IMG/VR virus record: IMGVR_UViG_3300011008_000010
Span: 64,001-128,000 of that record
DNA length: 64,000 nt
DNA from: a virus
Taxonomy: Duplodnaviria > Caudoviricetes
Strand: one strand, 5' to 3'
Both the position numbers and the translations under genes were made by a program. Of this stretch, positions 2,500 to 30,700 are shown piece after piece; within the stretch, counting starts at the first letter, position 1, and every line of letters begins with the position of its first letter. The notes under the pieces were generated by a model. It saw only the letters and a program-made list of their open reading frames with translations. It made no database searches and was not told where the DNA came from.

Positions 2500-5400
2500 A
2501 TGGCCAGTAATCAAGTAGAAAAAGTATTTAAATTCAGGGTTGATGTAGAGAATCCCTCGCAACAGTTTAAAAAGCTGTCACAAGAGGTTAAAAAACAAGT
2601 CGAACTATCAGCCACAGAAATAAAGATTCGCCCTGATGAAAATACAATTCCTGCTATCGCAAAAATACTTAGAGAAATTGAAGATAAGACAGGAATTACA
2701 ATTGACGTTGAAGCAAATTTGCAAAACGTTGAAAATCAGATTGCGAATTTAAAGAAACAGCTCAAAGATTTGAAATCTCCTTCTGAAATTGTTCCTAATA
2801 TGCGCAATATAGACAAGACGAATTATCTTAACGATCTTGCCAAAGACGCAAAGACGGCGAAGAAGGATGTTGAAGAACTTGGCAAAAAAGCGGAAGAAGC
2901 ATTTGCATCATTTGAGAGAAATAAAAATCGTAGAACTTATAGCGAATCATACAAAGAAGATTTGAAGAAGTTTCAGGAAGAATTTGTTCTTGAAACGAAA
3001 CTGTCTGATGTAAGAGATAAAGCTTTAGAGCAATTACAGGCTATTTCCAGTACGCCTGGTTGGGCTAACGAAGCTACAGAAGTGGCCAAGGTCATTGAAC
3101 TATTAAAGCAAGTTCAGTTGATTAACGAGAGAATCGTTGAACAACGGAAGAAAATGACTGAAGATCAGAAGCAGTTTTATAATGATAACGGTGTCACTAC
3201 AAATACAAAGATGCCTTCTGGTATAGATGCCAGTGCCGTATCTAAAAAGGTCGAACAAATTGCCAAAAGTTCCGATGGTCTTGTCGCATCTATTCAGGAG
3301 AATTTAAAGTCTCTACAAGCTGAAAAGAGAATGTTGGATGATCTTACAAAGTCCATGCAGGAATTTACAGCAGCGACAGATCAATCTGTTCAGACCGGTG
3401 GCAAAGGTGGTAGTGATACCGGGCTTGAGATATCTCCTACCGGATCAATTGATATCAGAGCGAATGCAAAGATTGAAATAACAGGACATGATGTAACGGT
3501 TATTCCGGAAAGTCCTGTTACTATTACCGGATCTAATGTCAGCATCGATATTGAAGCCGGTGCGTTCAATGGATTGAAAACTAAATCTTTGCAGAACGCA
3601 ATCGATATGATCAAGCAGATTGACGCTGCTATTAAGAACCATCAGACAATGACTCCTGAGATTAAAGAGGGGTCGTTAAAAATCGAGAGCGTAATACCTA
3701 AGAAGGTCAGCACGCTTACTATACCGGTTAAATTAGGTAAGTTGTCAGCAGAGAAGGTTAATAATTTTGTTGCAACTGCAAGTACAGAAGTTGCCGGTAT
3801 GGGAGCTGCCGTATTGATGAATACGGGGCTTAGAGATATAGCAAAAAAGGAAATTAATCGAGTAATTTCCGATACTAATAAAAAGGCAAAAACCGCTACA
3901 ACCAAGGTTAAGTTGGAAGCAGAACTTGTACTTGGCAAAGGAACGAGTGAAAAGGTTTCTGGAATTGAAGAAAAGGTCGGCTCTCTAACCGAGTCATTTG
4001 CTAATCTTCCAAGTACAATAACCGGTTCTGCCACAGAGAGTGTTCGTGCACTTGAAGAACTTAGAAAAATTATCGCCGATATTGACGAGAAGGTAAAAGA
4101 TATATCTAATGTCAAAATTACGCTTAGACATACCTCTCAGAAAGATGGCGGTAGTAGTAGTAGAAGTTCTTCTGGTAGTGGCACATCTTCTATTTCTGGC
4201 GGTCAGATGTCGAAGTTGTCTTCTTATGTAAAAGGAGTTTCAATTCCTAATACATCGGAACTTGATATAAAAGAATTAAGGCTTATATATCTTGAGCTCA
4301 TGAAGATATACGGACTTGCTGAAAAGATTCCGAAGGCAATGTTCGGCGAAGGCGAGAACTATATTAATTTTTCGAAAGAGCGTCTTGTTGCAGAAATAGA
4401 GGCTCTTCAACAGAGAGATGCTGTTCTAAAGGAAGAACAGAAAGTCGAAAAGGCGGTAAATGATTATCTCAAAAAGCAGATTTCGCTTCGTAACGAATTA
4501 GGAAAGAAGCAACAGGATCTTCGAGAGAAAATGGCCGAGATGTATAACGGCCTTTTCTATGGAGATGAGAATGCTAGAGACAGTCTAAACAATCTGCTTG
4601 AATCAATTGATCTCGATAAAATGATGTCGGATGGGAATCTTGACGTTGCCAAGAAAGTTCTTGGCGATGTTGCTTCTATTGTAAAGGAGATCCAGGATTC
4701 TAACAAAAAAGGTGCCACGGAAGCCAATAAAGCCCTCGAAGAAGCCGTCGAGAAAAGCAAACAGCAGCTTGAACTTGCCAAGCAGAGACGCGAACTCGAA
4801 GAAAAGATAACAAACATGAAGTCTGCGGTAGGATCTAATGACGATGAGTTCTATTCGAAGACCATAAACGAAATAGAGTCCGCGTTTAAGAAAATTGACG
4901 ATCACGGTCTTGCCGATAACATTGGCATCGAAAAGAGTAAACTTGATGAGATTAGTGAAGGATATAAGAATGTCACTAATATGATTAATTCTGCTTATGA
5001 CGCAGAGTTAAAAAGAGAAAAGGCGGCAGATGAGTCCTTTAAATTCCAACAGCAAATAATCAATCAACAAAATAATCTTCTAAAAGAAAAAGCAGAGCTT
5101 GAGCAGAAAATCCAGAAGATGTATGAGGATGGAATTGTTCGGGCAGAGAAGCTAAGAGACGTTGAAGAAGAACTTGCTAAGATTGATATTTCAAGCCCTT
5201 ATGATACTAATGGCAAAGCAAATCCTCTTGGCGGGGATGTTTTAAATAATTATGGGCAATCGCTTGACAACATAAGAAAGAATCTCGTAAATCTTGAAGC
5301 GCAAGAAAAGAAGGAGCTTGATGGCAGAAAGAAATTAGCCGGTTTCCTGCTAAACGAAAAAGAACTTCGTGAAAAGATTGCAGAGTTAAGAACTTATGGC

Positions 5401-6543
5401 AGTACGGATAAAGAACAGCTTGATAAGTTAGAGCAAGAGCTGAATACTTTTAATCTTGATAAGCTTGCAGAAAAAGCAGAGGCTCCTGCCAGAAAAGCAA
5501 TTGACGAGATTACTGTCGGACTTGGCAAGGTTAGAAAAGAACTTTTTGAAATTGAAAAAGCTACTATCAAACCGGCCAGTGCCTTAAAAGATCTTGGTAA
5601 GAAACTAAGAAGTTTTACCGGAACGCAAGAATGGCGCGACACATCTGATGCAAATATTGGCCTTAATTATATTGGATCAGAAGAGCAGCTTGCCAAAATA
5701 AGAGCTGCACGTCAGGAAATTGCACAGCTTGTTGAAACTGTCGGCAATATCAGCAAAGAATTCACCAAAGAAGAAGCCGAGAAGTTTACAAAGCAATATG
5801 AGAATGCAATCAGTAAGTTTGAAAATGCCGTAAGAAATGTTCAGAGAAAGACGGCTAAGAGCGGGAATGTTACTGTTCTTGGTACGGACACGTTGCATCA
5901 AGTTCAGGAAGTTGAAGATGCTATTAAACGCATTAATGAAATAGGTGCAAATGCTAATATTCAATGGACCACAAAAACAACCGGCGACATTACAAGGCTT
6001 ACCGGTGTTCTTACTGAAAATGATGGTACGGTAAAGACTCTTGTATATGATTACAATAATCTTACTACAGAGTTGTCTGAAGTAAGCGTCACAGAAAAGC
6101 AAACTGAAACATTTATGCAGCGCATAACAAAGTTGCTTCGCCAGAGAAGCGATGCTTTGATTGCGTACATTGGTACGTTCGCAAGTTTCTATCAAGTTAT
6201 GGGGAAACTTCGTGAAGGTGCTACTATTATCAAACAATTAGATACAAACATGACGGAGCTTCGTCGTGTTAGCGGTGCGACCAGAGGAGAATTGGAAGCT
6301 TTTAAGAGCACCGTTTTTGATATCGGTAGAGAAATTGGTTCTGCCGGAGATACAATTATAAAGCTTGCAGCAGATTATGCAAGACTTGGTTATTCATTAA
6401 GTGAAGCAAGCGAACTCGCTAAAGCATCTGCAATGTATATGAATGTAGGTTTTATTGATGATGCGACTTTTGCTATGGAAAGTTTAACATCGACGATGAA
6501 AGCTTACGGGATGCAAGCGAGTGAAGTTGCAGATATTGTTGAT
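2500..6543 (+). CDS. tape measure protein, exon 1 (1348 aa)
   Basis: Long helical ORF ending in the TP901-type TMP core (LDTNMTELRRV...ADYARLGYS...EVADIVD); core continues in later exons. Confidence 0.9.
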
Positions 6544-7053
6544 TAGAGTCGTTATCATATTGAAATAGATAACGATATATAGTTAGTCTATAGAGAAATC
6601 CGTAGATAGCGCGTTAAACGCCAACAAAGAAACTGAATTGCTGGGATACCGTAAAACTAATAGAACTACAACATAGGGATGAAACAAACTCAAGTGTGAA
6701 TGTGGCGAAAGCAGAAAAAATCTATTAGATGGCACATGGTTAAATCCTAAATGCTTCTACAAGAAATTGGTAATCAGCAGCCAAGCTCCGAACAGGAGAA
6801 GGTTCAACGACTATCCCTCGTGAGGGGAGTACACGCAAGCGCGTGGAAGTGGTTTCGCCTAAACGTATCGTAAGGTACGCATGGATAAGATATAGTCTGT
6901 GCCTTACTGAAAGGTAAGGAAGTTCATAAGAGAACTGCATGAGAAGTAGCGAGCTTATGTGAACGACGCCTCTAAAACGGCTAAAGTTGTGTGGTAATTA
7001 ACAAGTGGTTGTTACCGCTATGCATATGTAAAATTTTTAATATGTTTTTTTGC

Positions 7054-7083
7054 TTGACTTATTAGGGATAAATGCAGCATAAT
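7054..7083 (+). promoter_or_regulatory. sigma70-type promoter for tnpB inside intron 1
   Basis: TTGACT-N18-CATAAT, ending 46 nt upstream of the tnpB ATG. Confidence 0.5.
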
Positions 7084-7129
7084 ATTTATCGTGTAGTGGA
7101 TATATAATTTATTTATAGGTTTTGCGCAT

Positions 7130-8227
7130 ATGATTAAATCATATAGATTTAGACTTTATCCCAATAAAAGTCAAAGAGAACTTATGGCTCAAACATTTGG
7201 TAATTGCAGATTTGTCTATAATTATTATTTGGATAAAAGAATAAAATACTATGAAGAAACCAAAGAAACGTTTGGGTTTTATCAATGTTGCAAAGATTTA
7301 ACAGAATTAAAGAAGAAGTATGAATGGCTTCAAATATCCGATAAATGGGCTTTGCAAAACACATTGAAAGATTTGGACTTTGCGTTTAAAAATTTCTTTA
7401 GAAATAATGGTTATGGATATCCTCGGTTTAAATCAAAGAAAACACATAGATATTCTTATAAAACTACTTTTACAAATAATAATATAAAATGGTCGAAATC
7501 TGCAATTAGACTCCCAAAATTAGGTTGGGTTAAAGTAAGAGACAAACAAATACCACAAGGCAGAATTCTTAATGCTACGGTAAAACATGAACCATCTGGA
7601 AAATATTATTGTTGTATTTGTTGTACGGATGTTGAAATATCTCAACTTCCAAAAACGGGTTTAAACATTGGAATGGATTTAGGCCTTAAAGAATTTGCAG
7701 TTACCAATGACGGAACGAAGATAAATAATCCTAAGCACCTAGATAAGTCACTAAAGAAGCTTGTTAAATTGCAGCGAGAACTAGACCGAAAGACAAGGAA
7801 TAGCAATCGTTGGAATAAGCAAAGAATTAAAGTGGCTAGAATGTACGAGCGGATTACGAATCAAAGAAAAGATTTCTTGCAAAAATTATCCACGCAGATA
7901 ATATCAGACTATGACATTGTATGTCTTGAAAAATTAGACATACAAGAAATGATTGAACGTGCTGATTTTTCAAGAAGTATATTTGACGTATCATGGAACA
8001 TGTTTGTTCGAATGCTCGGATATAAAGCCGAATGGTACGGTAAAAAGGTGGTTAGGGTTGATAGATGGTACGCCAGTTCGCAAATTTGTTCGTGTTGTGG
8101 GCATGTTTACAAAAAGACAAAAAGTTTGTTAGTTCGGGAATGGACGTGTCTTAAATGTAAAACTCATCACGACAGAGATGTGAACGCTGCAAAAAACATA
8201 TTAAAAGAAGGGCTTCGAATAGCCTAA
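7130..8227 (+). CDS. tnpB: RNA-guided endonuclease TnpB (IS200/IS605 family)
   Basis: N-term YRFRLYP..FGNCRFVYN; RuvC GMDLG, CLEKL, DRDVNAA; CxxC..CxxC zinc ribbon; catalytic D/E/D intact. Confidence 0.95.
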   Translation: MIKSYRFRLYPNKSQRELMAQTFGNCRFVYNYYLDKRIKYYEETKETFGFYQCCKDLTELKKKYEWLQISDKWALQNTLKDLDFAFKNFFRNNGYGYPRFKSKKTHRYSYKTTFTNNNIKWSKSAIRLPKLGWVKVRDKQIPQGRILNATVKHEPSGKYYCCICCTDVEISQLPKTGLNIGMDLGLKEFAVTNDGTKINNPKHLDKSLKKLVKLQRELDRKTRNSNRWNKQRIKVARMYERITNQRKDFLQKLSTQIISDYDIVCLEKLDIQEMIERADFSRSIFDVSWNMFVRMLGYKAEWYGKKVVRVDRWYASSQICSCCGHVYKKTKSLLVREWTCLKCKTHHDRDVNAAKNILKEGLRIA

Positions 8228-8347
8228 TGTATGTATAGCGGTAGGAACTACCGTGTTAGCTCGTGGAGAAAGTAGGTAACGAAATCTGTGAAACGAGAAT
8301 CCGCAACTTTAGTTGTGTGAGGTTCAGAAGTTTAATGAAGTGGGTAA
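8228..8347 (+). ncRNA. TnpB omegaRNA 3' scaffold plus guide (guide about 8328-8347)
   Basis: GCGGTAGGAACTACCGT hairpin, CTCGT/ACGAG pairing, GAATCCGCAACTTTAGTTGTG end hairpin, then flanking guide; the 5' end probably overlaps tnpB. Confidence 0.75.
8328..8345 (+). CDS. tape measure protein, micro-exon 2 (KFNEVG)
   Basis: AAG TTT AAT GAA GTG GGT restores the conserved TMP motif DKFNEVGNNFAISS. Confidence 0.9.
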
Positions 8348-8656
8348 ATTGTTGCCCTTGAATGGCTATATCGGTCAAAGGGTGGGGACACCAGAGACCG
8401 AGCAAAGACTTAATATATTGCCGAAATGTGCTTAAAGAAAATGCGTTGAGGATAAACAATATGTTATGGATGCGTAACGACTGCGATATGGTATGTGGCA
8501 ACACATATTGTTAAGCCTATCCATGCGTAATAAGCTATCGCATGTAATATACAGTCTGAACTACCGCTATAATCCAAATAATTATGAAACGGTAGAGTAA
8601 GGCCGAAAGACCTTGCCGCCACAGAAATGTGGTCATAAAAGCAACAGTTAAATTTG
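8346..8656 (+). ncRNA. group I intron 2 (ORF-less, 311 nt)
   Basis: P1 GGGU/GCCC with U.G wobble; P10 AAATTGTT pairs with exon 3 AACAATTT; P7 GACTG 8479 / CAGTC 8552; terminal G. Confidence 0.85.
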
Positions 8657-8839
8657 AACAATTTTGCAATTAGCTCTGAAGGCATCGGTGAAGCCTTACA
8701 GAGATCTGCTGCTGCGCTTGCACAAGCAAACAATGATTTAGACAAGAGCATCGCTCTTGTTGTGGCTGCTAATGACGTTGTGCAGAATCCTGAAACAGTT
8801 GGTACTGCACTGCGCACGGTGGCTCTTCGCATAAGGGGT
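8657..8839 (+). CDS. tape measure protein, exon 3 (61 aa)
   Basis: NNFAISSEGIGEALQRSAAAL...QNPETVGTALRTVALRIRG, conserved TMP core; 183 nt in frame. Confidence 0.9.
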
Positions 8840-9165
8840 AACACATGTTATTTTATTTTGTGCCCATCCAGAGAGAAATCCTGGTCTGCGTTGCGAATAA
8901 TAAATTACGCAGCATGATCGCTATATCGGTCAAAGGGATAACGGTATCCAGAGACCGACGTAACCCATAGTGGGGTACGCTACAGACTGCCAGATCTATA
9001 TGGCAACATATAGGTTTAAGCGATCTCGCTCTCCTATTCTGGAAACGATGATATACAGTCGGAACTCACGCTATAACCGTAATTAATGAAACGTGAGAGA
9101 TAGCCAGAAATGACTATCCGCCCGCAAGGGTCAGTAGCTTTAATCCAGGCGAAAGTAACAGAGTG
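8840..9165 (+). ncRNA. group I intron 3 (ORF-less, 326 nt)
   Basis: Exon ends GGT, GCCC internal guide; shares GCTATATCGGTCAAAGGG, CCAGAGACCGA and GACTG/ATATACAGTC with intron 2; terminal G; splicing gives RIRG|AKADLEELGED. Confidence 0.85.
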
Positions 9166-12100
9166 GCAAAAGCGGATTTAGAAGAGTTAGGTGAAGACAC
9201 GGATGGATTAGCTAGCTCTGTATCGTCTTTAAGAGCAGAGGTTCTGGCACTTTCTGGTGTTGACATCATGATTGATGACAACACATTTAAAGATACTTAC
9301 AACATTCTAAAAGAACTTGCCTACGTATGGCATGATTTGACGGATGTTTCCCAAGCAGCTCTCTTAGAAAAGCTTGGTGGCAAACGTGGTGCTAACGTAA
9401 TCGCATCTATCCTTAGTAATGTAAACGATCTTGAGGCGGCTTATGCAGCCGCTGCTAATGCTGCCGGTTCTGCATCGGCAGAAAATTTAAAGTATCTAGA
9501 AAGTATCGAAGGTAAATTATCTCAACTCTCTGCTTCCTGGCAGGAGTTTTGGGATTCTTCATTTTTAAACAGCGTATTTAAAACCGGAATAAATTTATTA
9601 AATGGATTTGTTCAGATCTTAAATGATGCTGGCGGCATAGATTTTGCCATCACGCTCGCTGGCGTTGTTGGTTTGACACAGGCTATTAAACGGCTTGGTG
9701 GTTTTACCGGCAAGATAACAGAATTATATAACTCCTTTAAAGATTTCAGGGCGCTCATGAAAGATAATAATCTGAATTGGGCCGGTCTTTTTAAAGGGAG
9801 TTTCGTCAACGAGAAAGATATTAAAAAGAATGTAGAAAAAGTTGTTGGCAGTGCTTTCTCAACATACAATCAGGTATTTAATGCCGGTGGTGGTACTCAG
9901 GAAGCTGCTGCAAAAGCAAGTAGTGCGGCTTTAGCAGATCTCGTAAAAAATCAGGATCTATTGGCAAAATCATCCAGCGATTTAACTAAGTCTATGATTG
10001 AACGGGCTGCTCAAGAAGGTACGAACATAACGCTTGAACAGCAAGAAGCGAAGACAGTAGAAGTTCTGAACAATGAACTTGAGACTGGCGGAAAGAACAG
10101 TGCTCAATTTGCTAAAGGTCAAGCGGCAATGAAGAGTGCTATTGCTGCTATTGCTGTTATTGGCGTTTCTCTTGCCATTAATGCTATCAGCGCCTACATT
10201 CGAAAACAGGACGAATTAAGAGAGAAAATTATTGAGAACGGTAAAACGCAAGTAAAGCAAGCACGTAGTTTGCGTGATGCCGTTAATAGTTTTGATAAGA
10301 TCAATGCCGACTATAAGACCGGTGCGGCGACATCAGACGAATTAAGAAATGCTATTGAAGGCGTAAACGAAGCTCTCGGAGATCAAAAAGAATTATTAGC
10401 CGGTGTTTCGTCTGGCAGTGATACTTGGAGAAAGCGTCTCGATGAATTAATCGAGAAACAGAATGAGGTTGCTAAGAACGCGGCTCGTTCTGCGTTGTAC
10501 AATGCATCTAAGAAAAGTGCGACAGATACGGTCAAAGGTATTGGCTGGAGCATTGCCAAATACTGGACTTCTTCTTGGGGAGGTATGTTGCCGATTGGCA
10601 ACCTCCTTAAAGACGTAAATCCGATCTCTAAATTTTTTGGAAATAAGAAGGATCTTACCAATCGATCTTCTCAAATTAAGGCATTAAAGGAATGGCAGGA
10701 TGAGTTAAAAGAACTCGAAGAAGAATATAAAGAACTTGAAAAAGCCCAAGAAGAGGCTATGTCGGAAAATAATGGTGCTGCACTAAAGACCAATCCGATA
10801 AAGGTTCTTCTTGGTTGGCAAACGGATTATGCGAAAGAACTTGATAAGAATCAGAAGAAACAAGACGAGTTAATCAAGAATATTGCTCAATATAATGATT
10901 CTGTTCAAGAGACGGCTCAGGCAGCAGCATATCTTGTTTGGGAAGACAGTATTAAAGATATAGATAATGCGGCTGACAAATACAAAAAATTAGATAAAGC
11001 CGTAGAGGATGTAATTAGGACATTTGGACTTGCCGATGACGAAGAAGGCATCAAAGCCGCCAAAGAAATGATTCTGAGTTTCATGGAAATGGATTCGGAA
11101 TCTGCTGGGTTTATGGCTCTTAAAAAGGGAGCCGAGGATGCATCTAAAGCAATTGGTGCTGCAAGCGTTTCCGTAGAAGGACTGTTAGAAGCGTTTGATA
11201 AAGGAGATCTGACCGAACAAGACATTTTTGATCTTAGCGATGAAAGATTTAAGAATTATGTAGAGCAGAACCAACTTTATATTAAGAGTGTAGAGCAAGC
11301 TATCGAAACGCTTCATGCTTGGAAAGATGAAGTCAGAGCCGAGGCGAAAGAAACCAATACGCTTGTTGGTGTTATTAGGGACTCTAAAGATGCCATAGAT
11401 GATTTCCAGTCTGCTATATCGAAACTTGGTGCTATAATGAAAGCCGATTATTCGAATAACGCTTCTGGTATGATCGATGATCTGCAAGATCTAATCGACG
11501 TTATCAGTGGGATGGATACCAAAGTATCCGAGCAATTATTCGATAAGTTAAATAGTGCGTATAGCGTAGAAGCTCTTTCGTCTGCAATGAAGAAGGCCTC
11601 CGAAGAGGCAATGAAATTTAAATTAGATGGCTTAATTGATTCGTTAAATCTTGCAAATCCTGCATTGGAAAAGATGCTTCGTCTTCTTGTTGAACAGGAA
11701 AAACAAGTAGAAGCAATTACATCTGATTTAGATTCGTTTAAATCTGCTTATCAGAACCTTATTGGGGTGGTAAAAGAATACAATGAAAACGGATTTTTAA
11801 CGGCGGATAATATTAACACCATTCTGTCGATGAGTCCGGAGTATTTGGCTGCTCTTGATTATGAAGGTAATAAGCTAAAGTTAAATGAAGAAGCGTTAAA
11901 GAAAATTGTCCTTGTTCGATTGGAAGAAGCAAAGAGGCAAATTGAGTCTAATAGACATACTCAATTGTCTGCAATATATGCAGAACAAGAAGCGAGGGCA
12001 AAGCAAAAGTCTGCCGAATTAACATATGAACATGCGACAGCATTGTTACAAGAAGCAATTGCAGCAGGAAAATCTGAAACAGAAATACTGAAACTTGAGA

Positions 12101-15100
12101 AGCAAGTTTATAAACTGTATGAAGCACAACAAAAATTACAGGGTGTAGAGTTTTCGGGTACGCTAGATTCAGATTTGCAAGAGCAAGCAGATGCAGTAAA
12201 TGAAACTGCCGATGCTGCGATTGATAGTATTGATCATGTCATAGACGAGTTTGAAAACGGATCTATGGATGCGCTCAATACATTTCTCGGTGTTACAGAT
12301 GACATTGAAAAAGATGCCGAGGATGCCGCAGAAGAACTTAAATCTCAGATAGACTCCGTTCTTTCTAAGTGGAAATCTGCGCTGGATTCCGGTGCGATTA
12401 ACTATAAGCAATATCTGGACAAAATGAAGTCCATGCGCAATCAGTATGCAGATCAGTTAAATACCGAAGATTTGCTGCAAATGGATGTAGATATTGCCCA
12501 GGAAGAACAGAATATGTGGAAGGAGGCTATGGACGCTGCCGGTAGATATATTGACCGGGAGATGAAGAAGCCTATTGAAGATCGTATCACCGCATTAAAT
12601 TCTGAGAAAGATGCATTAGAAAGAAATAAGGATGCCATCAGTGATTACTATGATGGTATCATTGATGGTTTTGAGAAACAAAAGGAAGCTGTTGAAAATC
12701 AGATTGACGCTGTTGAGAAAGCGTATGAAGCTCAGATTAAGCCTCTTGAGAATCAGCAGAAGGCAATCAATAAGCAAATTAAGGCTATTGAAAAGCAGAA
12801 GCAAGTTATTGAGGATGAGATAAAGGTTCTTGAAAGATCTAAACGGCCTTATGAAAAACAACAAAAGGCTATTGATAAAGAAATTAAAGCGATTGAGCGT
12901 GAAATTTCTGTTATTGAAAAATCCAAGAAACCTTATGAGCAGAAACAAAAGGCATTAGAAAAGGAAATCAAGGCAATTGAAAAGCAGATTGATATCCTTG
13001 AACGCTCCAAGCGTCCTTATGAAGATCAACAGAAGGCGATAAACAAGGAAATCAAGGCGATTGAAAAAGAGATCAACGCTCTTGAAAAGACTAAAAAGCC
13101 TTATGAGAAGCAACAGAAGGCTATTGCAAAGCAAGTTAAGGCAATACAACGGCAGATCGATGCGCTTGAAGATACAAAACGTCCTTACGAAGATCAGCAA
13201 AAGGCAATTGACAAGCAAGTCAAGGCAATTAATAAACAGATTAAGGCTTTAGAGAAATCCAAAAAGCCTTATGAAGATCAGCAAAAGGCTATTGACAAGC
13301 AATCAAAGGCAATTCAGAAGCAGATAAATGCTTTGGAAAAGTCTAAAAAGCCCTACGAAGATCAACAGAAGGCGATAAGCAAAGAAATCAAGTCTATCGA
13401 AAAGCAGATTAAGGCGATACAGGATACTGAAAAGCCCTATAAAGAAGAACAAGAATCAATCGAGAAGTCTATTCGTGCGATTGAGCAGAAAATTAAAGCG
13501 TTTGAAAAACTGCAACAGCCATATAAAGAACAGCTTGATCTTGTTAATAAGGAAGTTGCCGCTCTTGAGAGAGAAATTGAACTTATGGAGCGGTCAAAAC
13601 GATCTTATGAACAACGACGTGATGCAGTTCAAAATGAAATTGATGCTCTGGAATATCAGATGTCTGTTATTGGCAGACAGGAAACTGCGTATAAGCGCGA
13701 ACAAGACGCTCTGAATAAAGACATTGAACTTCTTGAGCGCCAGGTTTCTATCCTTGAATATAGGAAGAAGCCTTATGAAATTGCACAAAGACAAATTGAA
13801 AGACAGATTGGTCTTTTGCAGCAAGAGCAGAAAGAACTTGAGAAATTAAAAGAGCCTTACGAAGAAGAGATTAAAGCCTTAGAGAAAGAGCTTGAGGCTA
13901 TGCAGGAAGCCAATGAAGAACGGCAAGCTGCACTTGATCTTCAACAGGCAGAATATAATCTCAGGAGAGCACAGCAGCAAAGAACCAATTATGTTTATCA
14001 GGATGGACAGTTCCAGTATATTGCAGATCAGACAGCTATTAAAGATGCTCAAAAGACGATAGATGATCTCAAATACGAGGAATCTGTAAAACGCGTTGAA
14101 AAGGCAATTGATAGGTTACAGGATAAGATTGACGAGATTACCGCTCAGAGCGATGCTATCCAAAAAGATATCGATGAACTGACAGATAAAAACGATCAAC
14201 TTGCCGAAAGCATTCAGCGCATACAGGATGAAATAGATCCTATTCAGGACGATATAGATGAGCTGACGTTTAAAGCAGAAGAATTACAGTGGTCTATAAA
14301 TGACATTGAGTATTCGATGACAAGTATCCAGTATGCCATCGAAGACTTAGAGGCTGCAAACGAAGATTTGGAAGAATCAATCCGACAGATTGACGAAGCT
14401 ATTCAGCCTTTACAGTATAGGCTTGATTCATTAAAAGATACTGCTTCTGACTTGCAATGGGAAATCGACAAGATACAGCAATACATCGATCCGTTAAATA
14501 CAGAGATCGAAGGGTTGAATGATACGATTTCTGAACTTCAGCTTATTATTGATGAAATCGAAGAATCAATTGATCCGCTTAATGAAAAGATCGACGAGCT
14601 GAATGAGCACAATGATTTATTACAGGAATCTATCGATGCTATAACAGACGCGATTGAACCGTTAAACGAACAAATTGACGAGTTAGCGGAACAGTCAGAT
14701 TTAATACAGGAAAAGATTGACGAAATTAATGATGCGATTGATCCTCTTAATGATCAGATTGATGATCTGAATGAACAAGGGGATGAATTGCAAGAAATGA
14801 TCGATTCTATCGGCGAATCTATTGATGAGCTAAGTCGTCAAATAGATGATCTGAATAGGCAGAGCGATTTTATACAGGATATTATCGATGAAATCGATGA
14901 GGCTATTGAGCCTCTCGAAGAACATTTAGACGAACTGAATGAAAAGAGCGAAGAGCTTCAAGAGCAAATAGATGCAATTGATGAAGCAATCGAACCTTTG
15001 CAGAGAACAATCGACGAGTTAAACGATCAGATTAGTGATTTGCAGGATGTTATCGATGCTATCGATGAATCTATGGAGCCGCTTCAGGAAAGAATCGAAG

Positions 15101-17460
15101 CACTTAATGAAGAGAGCGAAGAACTTCAGCAGACTATCGATGAAATCGATGAGGCCATTGAAGAACTGAACTATCAGCTCGAACCGTTAAACGACGAGAT
15201 TGATCTTCTTAACAGGCAGAACGATGAACTTAGCGAATCAATAGAAGAACTCAGAGAACAACAGGAGTTGGAAGTTGAAGCGTTACAGGCTCAGAGCGAC
15301 GCTATAAGCGAACAGATTGATTATTATCAGCAGTTAAAAGAACAGGCAGAAGAATCGATCCAGGCTCAGATAGATAAAATCGATGAACATATCGATGCGT
15401 TGGATAAGGAAATCGAAGGTATCGAAGCATATAAAGATCAGCTCACGAGCATCTTTGATGAAATTGATGCAAGAAAAGACGAAGATCTTCTTACTACGTT
15501 ATTCGGTGAAGGATGGCAAGAGAAACTACAATCATTAGATCCTCAGATTATAGCTGATTTTGCTGCTGGATATGAAGATTCTACGGAAAGATTAAAGGAA
15601 GCGAATCAGGTAGTCATTGATTCGTTAGAAGGACCAGATGGTCTTGGACAGGCAGCGGAAGAAACCGAACAAGACGTGTCTGAATTAAAAGATACGATGG
15701 CCAATGCCGATGAAGCAATAGGCGAAGGATCGATTAAGGATGCTATGGATCAGACTGCTGTATCTGCTGAAGATATGGCAGAAAGTTTTGTTAAAGTTAG
15801 AGACAACATTGACGAAGTAATTGATGCTATTGGAAGGCTTTGGGAACAGCGTGGGACTTTTAATGAAATTGGAGGCATGATAGATGTCTACCTGATTCAA
15901 AAGTTCCATGAAACCAAAGAAGCTATTGATCCTACTTTAATTGATACAATTGGTTTGCTGTGGGATGCCGTTCGTGTCAACAGCGTGATGATTGGCGATG
16001 CCATCGAGAATAACATATTAGGTGCTCTAAAGGATATTGAGGAATTCTTGAATAAGAATATTCCCGAAGCATCTGATTATGCAAAACAAGAGGTGATCAA
16101 AGATATTGAAGAGATCGTCTCTTTTATGACTGATCGTGCGCAGCCTGGTTTATTAACTGCAATCGATACGATCAAAGAAGAGGCAATCAACGCTTCCGAT
16201 GAAATTGTTCGTGAAGTTGAAGACGATATAGATCAGATCGTTAGTTATGCGGAAGATCCTGGTAAAGCACAGCTTGTTGCTACGGCAGAGCAGACAAGGA
16301 TTGATATTTCTGAGATTTCAGATGATCTTGTGGATGATATCGAAGATGATGTTAGAGAAATCTGTGAGGTTATTGTTCCTAATGGTCTTAGAGAATGCGA
16401 AAAAGAGATACAAGATTCCGTTGATAATGTAATTATTCCTAAATTAAGGGATATAAAAGACGAGATCGACGAAATTGTTAGTGCTGCTTTAGAAGCAATG
16501 CAAACTGTTTCTGAAATGGGTATGACAATTGCCAATGCAATTAATGAGGTTGCACAAAATATTAGCAATGTTATTAGTGGTATTGAGGAATCAATTAATA
16601 ATACCTATGAAAATCTCACAAAAGAAGGCGGTCTAATACAAAAGCTACATGAGGCGGCAGAAGCTGCTGCTCAGATCCCTGGATATGGTGTTGCTCAACC
16701 AGATCAAACTCAGGATGATGGCGGTGGCGGTGATCAGAATAACAATTATGATAATAACAACGGTGGTGGTGACAATAATTATGATGTTCAGTCTGCCGAA
16801 GTTCAAACAGATCAGTTTGTTGTTCAGAATGCCAATATTGAAATGACAACATCTGAAGGTAAGCGAGATGGATATCAAACTTACCGGATGGGCGAAAAGA
16901 GCATTTCTTATCAAAGATATAAGACCGAGGCTGGAAAAGAAGAAATTGAAAAATGGAGAGCGCAAGGTTACGACATCAGAGTAACATCTGGAGTTGGTGG
17001 TCGAACACTCTTCACTGTTGATCGCTATGGCAAAGGTGGGTATGTTGCAACTGAAAAGTTAAAGACGCCACTTACCAATTTGGCCAATGCTGTTGGCGAA
17101 GATAAGATGGTCGCCGTACAAGAAGGCGAACGCATCCTTACTCCTACTCAAAATAGGGATTTTGAAGAATTTGTCAGATTAACACCTGAGTTAATTAGTG
17201 CAACTGAAAGTCTTGCAAAATATGCAAAATTATTCGAAGACATTTCCACTATGGATTCGATGGCGTCAGAAGCAGGCATGATGCGTGGTGTCAATGGTGT
17301 TGTGGACAGAGCAAATGCTGCTCCTGTTACGAATAATACTATGTCGCTTAATATCGGTGATATCCATGTGCATGAAGCTAAGAATGCTGACGACCTTGCA
17401 AGACAGATTAAGAACAATTTGCCTAACTCTTTGATTCAGGCGTTAGGTAGAGCAAGTTAA
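9166..17460 (+). CDS. tape measure protein, exon 4 (2764 aa)
   Basis: Continues the TMP core (KDTYNILKELA..LLEKLGGKRGANV), hydrophobic segments, coiled-coil repeats, C-terminal VQEGERILTP motif. Confidence 0.9.
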   Translation, partial: AKADLEELGEDTDGLASSVSSLRAEVLALSGVDIMIDDNTFKDTYNILKELAYVWHDLTDVSQAALLEKLGGKRGANVIASILSNVNDLEAAYAAAANAAGSASAENLKYLESIEGKLSQLSASWQEFWDSSFLNSVFKTGINLLNGFVQILNDAGGIDFAITLAGVVGLTQAIKRLGGFTGKITELYNSFKDFRALMKDNNLNWAGLFKGSFVNEKDIKKNVEKVVGSAFSTYNQVFNAGGGTQEAAAKASSAALADLVKNQDLLAKSSSDLTKSMIERAAQEGTNITLEQQEAKTVEVLNNELETGGKNSAQFAKGQAAMKSAIAAIAVIGVSLAINAISAYIRKQDELREKIIENGKTQVKQARSLRDAVNSFDKINADYKTGAATSDELRNAIEGVNEALGDQKELLAGVSSGSDTWRKRLDELIEKQNEVAKNAARSALYNASKKSATDTVKGIGWSIAKYWTSSWGGMLPIGNLLKDVNPISKFFGNKKDLTNRSSQIKALKEWQDELKELEEEYKELEKAQEEAMSENNGAALKTNPIKVLLGWQTDYAKELDKNQKKQDELIKNIAQYNDSVQETAQAAAYLVWEDSIKDIDNAADKYKKLDKAVEDVIRTFGLADDEEGIKAAKEMILSFMEMDSESAGFMALKKGAEDASKAIGAASVSVEGLLEAFDKGDLTEQDIFDLSDERFKNYVEQNQLYIKSVEQAIETLHAWKDEVRAEAKETNTLVGVIRDSKDAIDDFQSAISKLGAIMKADYSNNASGMIDDLQDLIDVISGMDTKVSEQLFDKLNSAYSVEALSSAMKKASEEAMKFKLDGLIDSLNLANPALEKMLRLLVEQEKQVEAITSDLDSFKSAYQNLIGVVKEYNENGFLTADNINTILSMSPEYLAALDYEGNKLKLNEEALKKIVLVRLEEAKRQIESNRHTQLSAIYAEQEARAKQKSAELTYEHATALLQEAIAAGKSETEILKLEKQVYKLYEAQQKLQGVEFSGTLDSDLQEQADAVNETADAAIDSIDHVIDEFENGSMDALNTFLGVTDDIEKDAEDAAEELKSQIDSVLSKWKSALDSGAINYKQYLDKMKSMRNQYADQLNTEDLLQMDVDIAQEEQNMWKEAMDAAGRYIDREMKKPIEDRITALNSEKDALERNKDAISDYYDGIIDGFEKQKEAVENQIDAVEKAYEAQIKPLENQQKAINKQIKAIEKQKQVIEDEIKVLERSKRPYEKQQKAIDKEIKAIEREISVIEKSKKPYEQKQKALEKEIKAIEKQIDILERSKRPYEDQQKAINKEIKAIEKEINALEKTKKPYEKQQKAIAKQVKAIQRQIDALEDTKRPYEDQQKAIDKQVKAINKQIKALEKSKKPYEDQQKAIDKQSKAIQKQINALEKSKKPYEDQQKAISKEIKSIEKQIKAIQDTEKPYKEEQESIEKSIRAIEQKIKAFEKLQQPYKEQLDLVNKEVAALEREIELMERSKRSYEQRRDAVQNEIDALEYQMSVIGRQETAYKREQDALNKDIELLERQVSILEYRKKPYEIAQRQIERQIGLLQQEQKELEKLKEPYEEEIKALEKELEAMQEANEERQAALDLQQAEYNLRRAQQQRTNYVYQDGQFQYIADQTAIKDAQKTIDDLKYEESVKRVEKAIDRLQDKIDEITAQSDAIQKDIDELTDKNDQLAESIQRIQDEIDPIQDDIDELTFKAEELQWSINDIEYSMTSIQYAIEDLEAANEDLEESIRQIDEAIQPLQYRLDSLKDTASDLQWEIDKIQQYIDPLNTEIEGLNDTISELQLIIDEIEESIDPLNEKIDELNEHNDLLQESIDAITDAIEPLNEQIDELAEQSDLIQEKIDEINDAIDPLNDQIDDLNEQGDELQEMIDSIGESIDELSRQIDDLNRQSDFIQDIIDEIDEAIEPLEEHLDELNEKSEELQEQIDAIDEAIEPLQRTIDELNDQISDLQDVIDAIDESMEPLQERIEALNEESEELQQTIDEIDEAIEELNYQLEPLNDEIDLLNRQNDELSESIEELREQQELEVEALQAQSDAISEQIDYYQQLKEQAEESIQAQIDKIDEHIDALDKEIEGIEAYKDQLTSIFDEIDARKDEDLLTTLFGEGWQEKLQSLDPQIIADFAAGYEDSTERLKEANQVVIDSLEGPDGLGQAAEETEQDVSELKDTMANADEAIGEGSIKDAMDQTAVSAEDMAESFVKVRDNIDEVIDAIGRLWEQRGTFNEIGGMIDVYLIQKFHETKEAIDPTLIDTIGLLWDAVRVNSVMIGDAIENNILGALKDIEEFLNKNIPEASDYAKQEVIKDIEEIVSFMTDRAQPGLLTAIDTIKEEAINASDEIVREVEDDIDQIVSYAEDPGKAQLVATAEQTRIDISEISDDLVDDIEDDVREICEVIVPNGLRECEKEIQDSVDNVIIPKLRDIKDEIDEIVSAALEAMQTVSEMGMTIANAINEVAQNISNVISGIEESINNTYENLTKEGGLIQKLHEAAEAAAQIPGYGVAQPDQTQDDGGGGDQNNNYDNNNGGGDNNYDVQSAEVQTDQFVVQNANIEMTTSEGKRDGYQTYRMGEKSISYQRYKTEAGKEEIEKWRAQGYDIRVTSGVGGRTLFTVDRYGKGGYVATEKLKTPLTNLANAVGEDKMVAVQEGERILTPTQNRDFEEFVRLTPELISATESLAKYAKLFEDISTMDSMASEAGMMRGVNGVVDRANAAPVTNNTMSLNIGDIHVHEAKNADDLARQIKNNLPNSLIQALGRAS
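12739..13900 (+). repeat. basic 28-aa (84-nt) coiled-coil repeats, about 14 units
   Basis: K(K/R)PYExQQKAIxKxIKAIEKxIxxLEKS periodicity. Confidence 0.85.
14150..15240 (+). repeat. acidic 28-aa coiled-coil repeats, about 13 units
   Basis: (D/E)PLNxxIDELNxxxxxLQExIDxIDEAI periodicity. Confidence 0.85.
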
Positions 17461-27766: not shown

Positions 27767-30700
27767 ATGGCAAAAGTAGGAAAAGTACAACAGAAAAGAT
27801 GGCATTTAGATGGCGGCATTGAGGTCACTTCTATTCAAGAAGACGGAGATCAGAAGCCGTCGATTTATTTAGGTAATTATAACGTAGACAACTCGCCCAG
27901 CCTCGCACTCGTTGCTTATACGGGAAGTTATTATGATCTTGTTGATTATCCGGATCTTAGCAATTTTGTTGTAGATGGGAATTATGTCCATACAGATAAT
28001 AATTTTACAGATGAAGATAAGGCAAAGCTTGGCAATATGTTTAATTATACGTTGCCAATTGCGACAGAGAAATTATTGGGTGGTGTAAAAGTTGGCGATC
28101 ATCTTGAGATGAGAAAAGATCCGAAAGATGATTCTAATAACCCGATAAAAGATAGGTTATCTGTAATAGAATCTGATTTTATTCAAGTTTTGAATCCTAA
28201 AAGCATCGTCACAAAGTTTAGCGACATCCCGTTAGATGCTGCTGGACAATTGGGCATTTCTCCAATATATGCGCCTATCGAAACAGACAAAGATGTTAAT
28301 GGATATTATATTCGTTATAACAACATGGCGTTTTTTTCTCAAGATCCGCAAACAGATACAAAGACTCTCAATGGTAAAACCATTAAAATTGAGCAGGAAT
28401 ATCTTTTGAAAGGTGGTCTTTGGTGGACAACAAAGAATGCCGGACAATGGATAAAAGTTCTTGACCAGTTCAACATCATATCTTTTAACGACCGCGTTGG
28501 AAAAGTTTATCCTGTTGGTATGGATGATTATCTCAATGAATCAGAAGACTATGATGCAAATATGGTCGGCGCTATGGCAAGAAGTGGCCATCCTGGTGTC
28601 TGGACGGTAATAAAAGATGAAGGACGTATTGTTCGTCAGTTTTGGAACGGTCAAACAATAGATTCTCTTAGAACCACTGATTCTGGCTGGGCAAGAATAG
28701 GTTGTCTAAAATGGGATTCGGAAAATAAAAGATTTAAGCCGGATCCCGTTAATTCTCCCACCGGAGGCATTATAAATGGTACATTTTGGAAGTTAGATGG
28801 ACTACCTACGCTACCAACATATTGTGCAAATCCATATTATCCTGATACATATCGCGGCAATGGAAAGGGTTCTTTTTTCTTTATGCCAGATGATCAGGAT
28901 CGTATCTGGGTAAAAAGAGGGAAAAATTGGGAGGATAACGGCTGGTTCTATCTTGAACAACTTCCAATTGCTACCAGAACAAGACTCGGCGGTATTATGG
29001 TCGGCGCAGGTCTTGATATAACAGAGACGGGCGTATTGTCTGTTTCCGGTATTGTTACATCGTGGACTGGCAAGCAAGGTGCAAGACGAGTCAATGAAGT
29101 AGTTGCCATGAATGGCGATTATGATGCAACAATGATTACATTCGGGAGCGAATGGTCAAATACTGCAAATGTAGATTACGAGTTAAAAAGGCTGTTATCT
29201 CTTATTAATACAAAGGCTCCGATTAATTCTCCGGCTTTTTCAGGCAGACCTACGACACCTACGCCGGGTCCCAATGATAATGGTACGCAAATAGTAAATA
29301 TTGCTTGGGTACGAAATCATGTTGCAACAGAGTTGCAAAATGTAGTTGGGTATACGCTGCCTGTTGCTACGACATCCACTCTTGGCGGTATTATCGTAGG
29401 AAACGGATTGTCAATAAATGCGAGTGGAGTGCTCAGTGTTAATTTACCAAGCGGAAGTGGTAATGTTGTTGTAGATACATCTCCTAACACATCCAGTCAG
29501 AATCCTATAGCAAATAGTGCTATTACGCAATATGTCAACAATGTTGATAATAAATTCGATGATTATGTATTAAAATTAAACGGAACCGCTCAAAATCTTA
29601 CTCTTACCGGAAATGCAAAATATGTAACTCTTGCAAAAGGTACGTCAAATGACTATTTAGCTACAACCAAGTTTGTAATGGAGGCCATTGACGAAAAAAT
29701 TTCTATTATAAATGATGGTAGTGGAGGTAGTAGTGTCGTCATTAACCAATATACTCTCCCTCCAGCAAGTGCAAGTACAAGAGGTGGTGTTAGGGTTAAT
29801 GGCGATGGAATTATTCTAAAGAATACGGATCAAATTACTGTTGATGTAGATTATTTAAACAATGGCAAGTTAAAATACATTCGTTCTGAAGAAAATTTAA
29901 ATATTGGTACGCTTAATAGCATTCCAATGAATTCCTCCGGCGTTACAAAATTATCTGCGGCATATGGTCCTACGTCTAAAGATATGACCGGGTATTATTT
30001 AAAATATAATGCTGGTAACAATGTTAGTTCCTATATTTTATGGTTTTGCGATTTTGAAACAAATGATAGTTATTATTTCGTGCATAAATCAGATAATGAA
30101 TATGCATGGAACAAAACGTTTTCTGTCGAGGGAAGTAGTAATTTTGAAGATTTTGATATAACAAAATATGCAAAATTGGACTCTCCTTCCTTTACAGGAA
30201 CTCCTACTATTATATCTGATTATTTAAATGATCCCGGATATAACGGATCTGGCATAGCAACTGCCACATTTGTTCAAACGGCTATCAGTTACAGACTTGG
30301 GCAACAAGATAAAGCATCGGAGTCCAAATACGGCATCGTAAGAATTAAACCAAATGGAGGGATTAAAGTTGATAATGGCGTCATAGAAATGGATGGCGTT
30401 GTATCTTTTAATGGTAGAAATGGCGATGTCGTCCCTGGATCTGATGATTATAATTCTACTCAAATTAAATATAGCGGTAACGTTTCCGGTTCTACTGTAA
30501 AAGCAGCGATTGATAATTTATGGTCAACAAAAGCTGCATCTAATAATACTAAACTGACCGGAGTTGCTACTTTAAATAATATACCAATTGCGACCCAAAG
30601 TTGGGTACAGGCATGGCAACCTATTGCAAGTACATCCAGTCTTGGCATGATTAAAATTGGAAATGGCTTAGAAATAGAATCTGATGGAACTTTGAAAACA

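Follow-up and report, generated by a model that had tools for sequence, protein, structure and literature searches.

Tape measure proteins (TMPs) are textbook linear molecular rulers and account for about 1.5 Å of tail per residue. The TMP gene in the window analysed here, i.e., the 64,000 nucleotides (nt) at bases 64001–128000 of the 137,795-base IMG/VR virus record IMGVR_UViG_3300011008_000010 (Caudoviricetes, uncultured; completeness estimate 77%, CheckV), encodes two long arrays of 28-residue repeats on either side of a short aromatic turn. We consider it likely, with a probability of about 0.75, that this segment is a hitherto unannotated fold-back module conserved among siphophage TMPs, here in an extremely expanded form, and, with the same confidence, that the module forms an intramolecular antiparallel coiled coil which is closed by the docking of two anchors and whose arms change length only together. 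Since the two halves of the module are kept equal in length, part of the ruler may be expected to fold back in the manner of an SMC arm, either inside the tail or after ejection. This phage would be the extreme case of a TMP with such an SMC-like hairpin module. All residue numbers are counted from the open reading frame (ORF) at 9163–17460 (P0001), which contains the following elements.

9163–17460, + strand: last and largest exon/ORF of the TMP gene (P0001, 2765 amino acids (aa)); stop-free translation, PHROG TMP families, BLASTP to the TMP of phage PMBT24
12502–12609, + strand: N anchor, aa 1114–1149, core MWKEAMDAAGRYIDR, conserved helix at the outer end of arm 1; hidden Markov model (HMM), 11 homologs, and position-specific scoring matrix (PSSM)
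12742–13908, + strand: arm 1 (N arm), aa 1194–1582, one 35-aa unit and ~13 28-aa units, consensus IKAIEKQIKALEKSKKPYEDQQKAIEKE; proline and heptad analysis, AlphaFold2 (AF2) helix
13909–14073, + strand: centre domain, aa 1583–1637, helix end, β-hairpin and helix start; homolog alignment, HMM
13987–14022, + strand: β-hairpin tip NYVYQ-DG-QFQYI, aa 1609–1620, putative fold-back apex; AF2 strands, centre of the a/d mirror (S = 3229)
14074–15270, + strand: arm 2 (C arm), aa 1638–2036, ~13 28-aa units, consensus EAIDPLQEQIDELNDQIDELQESIDEID, with an extra heptad at aa 2001–2008; proline and heptad analysis, AF2 helix
15466–15576, + strand: C anchor, aa 2102–2138, core DLLTTLFGEGWQEKLQSLDP, LFGxxW motif at the outer end of arm 2; HMM

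Repeat arms, centre and anchors

The initial annotation had described Lys-rich and acidic arms of 28-aa repeats at 12739–15240, which corresponds to aa 1193–2026 of P0001. These repeats are real: residue identity at a lag of 28 was 0.48 in arm 1 and 0.45 in arm 2, compared to at most 0.12 at every lag in the flanking TMP, and the spacing of the prolines follows the same unit. In arm 1, P1194 is separated by 35 aa from P1229, which is followed at a distance of 12 × 28 aa, with two prolines lost, by P1565; across the centre, 128 aa lead from P1565 to P1693, from where 10 × 28 aa reach P1973 and a further 35 aa P2008. From this spacing, the single 35-aa unit is the first in arm 1 and the last in arm 2, so that it is outermost in both arms, in the mirrored arrangement that had been noticed before. 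Tandem Repeats Finder reported periods of 84 and 168 bp at 12914–13409. Matches of the arms in Pfam were generic coiled-coil noise only (e.g., tropomyosin, EzrA, AAA_13).

The arms had also been called charge-mirrored. Arm 1 is Lys-rich and arm 2 strongly acidic, but the symmetry was overstated: with 90 Lys and Arg versus 84 Asp and Glu, arm 1 is almost neutral (net +6 over 407 aa), whereas arm 2 contains 24 versus 134 (net −110). Position d of the heptads was 100% hydrophobic in both arms, and position a was hydrophobic in 48% of cases in arm 1 and 80% in arm 2. Arm 1 places Lys at b and f, Glu at e, and Ala or Pro at c; arm 2 places Asp or Glu at b, c and f, and Pro occurs at c in both arms. 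Positions e and g are occupied by E/Q/S in arm 1 versus Q/N/T/A in arm 2 and lack a complementary pattern. As the charges face away (b, c, f) while the hydrophobic a/d seam matches, the arm pairing predicted from the heptads is hydrophobic rather than electrostatic, and the electrostatic zipper of the initial annotation is not supported.

Reflection of the sequence about the D1614–G1615 turn (i + j = 3229) brought 68 of the 94 core a/d residues of arm 1 opposite a core residue of arm 2, this mirror being one among maxima that recur every 7 residues. Under the same reflection, prolines of arm 1 fell no more than 1 residue from prolines of arm 2 (e.g., 1257 vs. 1972/1973) and the extra heptads came to lie level, with aa 1194–1229 of arm 1 projected onto 2000–2035, a range that spans aa 2001–2008 of arm 2. 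In both arms, the units become more regular the further they lie from the turn, next to which they are degenerate (r = 0.86). The DNA identity of the units was 0.66 in arm 1 vs. 0.61 in arm 2 for distal units and 0.48 vs. 0.47 for proximal ones; owing to this similar divergence, the two expansions look old and of similar age. A hint of a two-unit super-period was seen in the unit DNA of both arms. The axial rise of one siphophage tail-tube ring is about 40 Å. A 28-aa coiled-coil unit spans ~41 Å if a rise of ~1.48 Å per residue is assumed, and the repeats may therefore be in register with the tube rings; other lineages have 35-aa or mixed repeat periods.

The turn between the arms, RTNYVYQDGQFQYIAD, occupies aa 1607–1622 (nt 13981–14028), precisely the coordinates assigned to it initially. 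It is part of a centre domain with the family consensus ANEERxRAxDLQKAxYxLxRAxNQRTxxVYxxGxFxYxxDxxAIRDAQ, in which N, R, L, Y, L, Q, Y, Y and D are near-invariant around the β-hairpin; the 55-aa domain contains no Cys. When aa 1150–2100 were used as a query, 98 long proteins were matched, many of them with PF10145, and the centre was single-copy in 93 of the 98. The C anchor was found in 35 and, upon iteration of the HMM, in 122 homologs. Two homologs with ~77% identity to the window protein have exactly equal repeat counts, and distant homologs (e.g., P0010 and P0012) show the order Lys-rich arm, conserved centre, acidic arm and LFGxxW motif. A search of 1.84 billion representative proteins placed the centre in 562 protein clusters (E ≤ 1e-3), and no model of Pfam or PHROGs matched the centre or the anchors. 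The centre and two anchors make the module easy to recognise in at least 562 clusters that Pfam and PHROG models leave uncovered.

ESM Atlas returned hypothetical clusters and weak tape-measure leads only. The short homolog P0118 was searched by tblastn against 50,697 phage records and yielded six Enterocloster phages only, at this sensitivity the sole cultured carriers; searches of the phage collection with the window DNA (megablast) and with the centre (tblastn) gave no matches, and a search of genome contigs with another short homolog, P0109, retrieved no related loci. One named metagenomic member comes from a Lachnospiraceae metagenome-assembled genome (MAG). Because the contig search for P0109 was empty, the host range rests on this one MAG name and the Enterocloster phages.

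Arm lengths across homologs

The initial annotation had predicted that the two arms expand in concert and had named the correlation of their lengths across homologs as a test, the outcome of which was strongly positive. In seven lineages for which all three landmarks were located by HMM, the difference (centre − N anchor) − (C anchor − centre) amounted to 13 residues, or 14 in the window clade. This offset was constant across arms of 91–487 aa, and P0009, P0010 and P0011 added the same value in a best-hit-anywhere HMM search. We further derived a PSSM of 24 aa from ten proteins with an N anchor already identified by similarity, ran it over complete protein sequences and, for 100 proteins that have one C anchor, recorded the best match upstream of the centre. 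This match coincided with the residue predicted by the mirror (dN = dC − 1) in 74 of these 100 proteins and was no more than 4 residues off in 83, compared to a chance expectation of ~1. For the 87 proteins outside PSSM building, placement was exact in 64 and within 4 residues in 70. An alternative choice, the N-anchor match nearest to the centre above a score threshold, was dropped as too noisy, because coiled-coil arms give spurious matches.

Nineteen arm-length classes were matched to within 3 residues (49, 56, 67, 74, 76, 81, 83, 88, 95, 99, 101, 102, 109, 183, 190, 225, 260, 293 and 484 aa). The modal homolog arm measures 67 aa (~10 nm), and the arms of the window protein, ~484 aa, are the longest found. 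Many neighbouring classes differ by a multiple of 7 or 11, the spacing to be expected of coiled coils. Arm length and total protein length were loosely correlated (r = 0.46), and general size scaling can therefore not explain an arm equality at residue level.

Duplicated anchors followed the same symmetry. In proteins with two C-anchor units (74 aa apart), the best N-anchor match was located one 39-aa unit further out, and in proteins with three C-anchor units it was located two 39-aa units further out, as counted in the 12 proteins in which every C-anchor unit was detected. The copies are thus nested in the order N2-N1-centre-C1-C2 (2+2 or 3+3). The HMM overlooked a diverged first C unit in another five proteins (recognised by eye in one, P0058), and P0192, with 4 C units, was left out. 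The rods of P0104, P0112 and P0058 are lengthened by tandem anchor copies, not by heptad repeats, and the sizes of the copied units are unequal (N 39 aa vs. C 74 aa).

Predicted fold and state in the tail

The AF2 model of the window module (aa 1100–2200; mean predicted local distance difference test (pLDDT) 68.6, predicted template modelling score (pTM) 0.30) was helical throughout except for the strands NYVYQ and QFQYI (model residues 510–514 and 517–521), and its pLDDT profile was mirror-symmetric about the β-hairpin (r = 0.88). The short homolog P0109 (236 aa) was modelled with a pLDDT of 85 and a pTM of 0.66 as helix 36–122, β-hairpin and helix 140–214. Foldseek searches against PDB gave no match at E ≤ 0.001; the weak matches were all long antiparallel hairpins (Smc coiled coil, chemoreceptor, p85 iSH2, prefoldin). 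The best neighbour of the window model was the folded elbow of cohesin (7ogt_B, Z 14.4, root-mean-square deviation 40 Å), and Smc coiled-coil fragments were also among its neighbours. VIA-align returned T7 tail protein, prefoldin, Smc, IpaB and fusion cores at Z ~10, below the helical noise bar of ~13. A three-copy complex prediction for P0109 scored 0.12 (mark 0.42) and was given no weight either way. An antiparallel fold-back with concerted expansion is strongly supported by the arm equality, the nested anchors and the AF2 hairpin. Given the arm correlation, the AF2 hairpin and the antiparallel neighbours, an antiparallel rod that grows in both arms is the best reading, in agreement with the rod proposed initially, albeit with ~480 rather than ~400 residues per side.

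The proposed module would consist, in this order, of the N-anchor helix, arm 1, the centre with its aromatic β-hairpin, arm 2 and the C-anchor motif. Within each chain, the arms would pair antiparallel through their hydrophobic a/d seams, with the β-hairpin at the apex and the two anchors meeting at the base, comparable to SMC or Rad50 arms that extend from a hinge. Because such a coiled coil closes when the anchors dock, the arms could change length only together, and any heptad, hendecad or 28-aa unit gained in one arm would have to be matched in the other. With ~484 aa per arm, the rod of the window protein would reach ~72 nm.

Among known systems, SMC, Rad50 and MukB resemble the module most in architecture: in each, a single chain has two long arms that fold back from an apex domain, have matched lengths that co-vary, and are interrupted at corresponding levels. 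Arms of matched and co-varying length that flank an apex were indeed found here. In contrast to SMC and Rad50, the module has no ABC-type ATPase head at its base (the anchors are without a Pfam match, and the AAA_13 match covers the coiled-coil part only, profile positions 281–470 of 713), and its apex is a 12-residue β-hairpin instead of a hinge or zinc hook. Moreover, SMC and Rad50 handle DNA, whereas the TMP is a virion component without sequence homology to them. Prefoldin consists of antiparallel coiled-coil helices joined by a β-hairpin, a connectivity like that of the AF2 models. Its hairpins, contributed by several subunits, build an oligomerisation barrel. VIA-align gave Z 10.0 to prefoldin 1fxk_C (3.9 Å over 103 aa; helical noise bar ~13), and the Pfam model Prefoldin (PF02996) reached 18.7 bits, below its 23.2-bit cut-off, on aa 1643–1688 only. 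Prefoldin arms measure ~40 aa, compared to 49–484 aa here, and the function differs. The class I fusion cores of HIV gp41, coronavirus S2 and influenza HA2 offer an analogy only, namely two heptad regions and a turn that form a trimer of hairpins when triggered. The gp41 and S2 cores were among the weak structural neighbours (VIA-align); the module is without a fusion peptide and without homology to these proteins, and only its monomer topology was modelled here. Canonical TMPs (lambda gpH, TP901-1 TMP, T5 pb2; PF10145 core) are described as linear rulers, and a search of the full-text literature retrieved no description of a TMP fold-back module with matched arms or of a TMP hairpin.

From this evidence we infer that the arms physically pair. 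Several observations weigh against a fold-back. The pairing is deduced from covariation and AF2, and AlphaFold2 is prone to model any long helical chain as a fold-back. The pTM of the window model is low (0.30) and the model has extra elbows within each arm, so its geometry is not trustworthy; the Z values of the structural matches stay under or close to ~13, the noise level of helical models. In ~17% of the proteins with a single C anchor, the best N-anchor match was more than 4 residues off, mostly for low-scoring anchors. A hairpin placed in line within the tube needs a third strand per chain, i.e., nine per trimer, which is sterically hard, and no third-strand covariation was detected (post-module length vs. 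rod length, Spearman 0.06). Finally, PMBT24, an Enterocloster siphophage and the only cultured relative with electron microscopy, has a TMP of 1508 aa and a tail of 238 ± 6.5 nm (PMC11035940). The resulting 1.58 Å per residue fits a fully extended ruler; this tail length does not discriminate between the models, because the arms of PMBT24, in which the module lies at about aa 1159–1345, measure only ~60 aa.

If a hairpin forms, the balance tips slightly, at close to even odds, towards a TMP that serves as a stretched-out ruler within the tube and adopts the hairpin fold no earlier than its expulsion at infection. Hairpin formation on ejection would shorten the TMP and bring the regions flanking the module together. 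By analogy with fusion proteins, one might speculate that many siphophage TMPs carry a built-in spring, which would be extended in the tube until arm 2 zips onto arm 1 on expulsion to give a trimer of β-hairpin-capped hairpins, or which, in a variant, would hold its hairpin already folded in the virion; we regard this idea as tentative. If true, the TMP would be shortened by the arm length (~72 nm here), with the folding energy pulling the tail tip and the membrane-inserting TMP parts together, and the variant would explain a six-fold lumen density above three C-termini.

It is possible, though we hold it to be the less probable case, that the hairpin is already folded in the assembled tail, where three chains would form a six-helix segment in the distal tube lumen. 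The module would then add only about half its residues to the tail length, and each pair of 28-aa units (~41 Å) would correspond to about one tube ring. An intramolecular coiled coil should form spontaneously before the tube is assembled, arm equality fits this state equally well, six strands can be accommodated in a siphophage lumen, and the 238 nm tail of PMBT24 is compatible with it if ~0.175 nm per residue is assumed. In phage Ur-lambda, six-fold chains were seen in the distal 29 nm of the tube above only three C-terminal pieces at the tip; the authors read these as six copies, and comparable observations have been reported for A-1(L) and HFTV1 (PMC12617516). Three folded chains would be an alternative reading of such six-fold density for a family like the one described here. 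However, a third strand would be forced beside the rod in each chain, giving nine strands over ~72 nm, and neither the post-module length nor the distance to the Gly-rich linker tracks arm length (for the latter, no consistent trend was found). In addition, a net charge of ~−104 per hairpin would be concentrated in a negatively charged lumen, as described for one tail, that of phage 812 (PMC12886913).

It appears improbable that the arms never pair and that the TMP forms a linear parallel trimer, the arms of which would be kept equal by a shared external measure, such as an assembly chaperone or a set number of tube rings. Such an arrangement agrees with the classical ruler model (~1.5 Å per residue) and with the value for PMBT24, and AlphaFold2 hairpins of long helices can be artefacts. 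It leaves the nesting N2-N1-centre-C1-C2 unexplained, however, as well as the mirroring of a/d phases, prolines and extra heptads about the turn and the 19 length classes between 49 and 484 aa that are equal to the residue; a parallel homotrimer of arm 2 would also stack ~−30 charges per 28-aa layer. To our knowledge, no mechanism demands residue-level equality of two in-line ruler segments. We are still more sceptical of the version proposed in the initial annotation, in which basic and acidic arms are zipped by charge and traverse a thick envelope as a needle or channel. The acidity of arm 2, the Lys content of arm 1 and weak fold neighbours that include membrane-penetrating hairpins (TcdA1 pore, XaxB, IpaB, T7 tail/ejection proteins) speak for it. 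Yet the pair is far from neutral (+6 vs. −110), the charges occupy heptad positions b, c and f instead of e and g, most arms of the family reach only 67 aa (~10 nm), the rod lacks a hydrophobic or membrane segment, and the fold matches are at the level of helical noise.

A fold-back module of this kind, if true, would affect the prediction of tail length from TMP length, the reading of six-fold vs. three-fold densities in tail lumina, and ideas on the mechanical work that a TMP might perform while the genome is delivered into Gram-positive gut bacteria. The cultured phage PMBT24 makes the module experimentally accessible.

The split tape measure gene and its surroundings

Assignment of P0001 as a TMP was based on a match of aa 30–452 to phrog_4211 (TMP, E 3.6e-20), with phrog_167 and others matching too. 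The upstream part of the gene is interrupted and includes the following features.

2500–6546, + strand: first TMP exon/ORF, 1348 aa; phrog_4211 positions 575–715 (E 1.8e-18), PF10145 profile positions 7–80
6569–6919, + strand: group I intron ribozyme that interrupts the TMP gene outside the repeat module; Rfam RF00028, 65.9 bits, full length
7130–8227: TnpB-like ORF after the group I intron (IStron-like); phrog_506 transposase, E 4.9e-128
8654–8917, + strand: small TMP exon region; PF10145 profile positions 87–145

The two large TMP ORFs cover consecutive ranges of the phrog_4211 profile. The PF10145 core (PhageMin_Tail) is present but split by introns: the end of the ORF at 2500–6546 scored 22.7 bits and the ORF at 8654–8917 scored 24.2 bits, each piece alone being under the cut-off of 33.2 bits. 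Overall, the TMP gene is split over 2500–9165, with at least one further gap between TMP core pieces at ~8840–9165. The window TMP carries ~1140 extra N-terminal residues before the PF10145 core, compared to a core start near aa 47 in the TMP of PMBT24; this N-terminal extension (2500–6546) is separate from the expansion of the arms. In CB457P1, a phage related to PMBT24, the TMP is likewise encoded in two ORFs, which are split by an unrelated 157-aa ORF (PMC11035940), and interrupted TMP genes may be common in the PMBT24/CB457P1 phage group.

The TMP gene lies in a tail gene module upstream of hub genes, and the order TMP, hub protein 1, hypothetical protein, hub protein 2 is common to the window and PMBT24 (BLASTP; distant similarity). 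A sheath domain was looked for in the whole virus record and none was found. Downstream of the repeat module, a low-complexity linker rich in Gly, Asn and Asp is located at ~16570–16660 (aa ~2470–2500), ~330 aa beyond the C anchor, and PMBT24 and many homologs have a Gly- or Asp-rich linker similarly soon after the module. The window linker recalls the Gly-rich region at which lambda gpH is cleaved to gpH* (PMC12617516). At 27767–32644, several short stretches of a 1625-aa ORF matched PHROGs of tail fibres (phrog_9625, phrog_2631 and others); judging from these matches, the ORF probably encodes a receptor-binding fibre.

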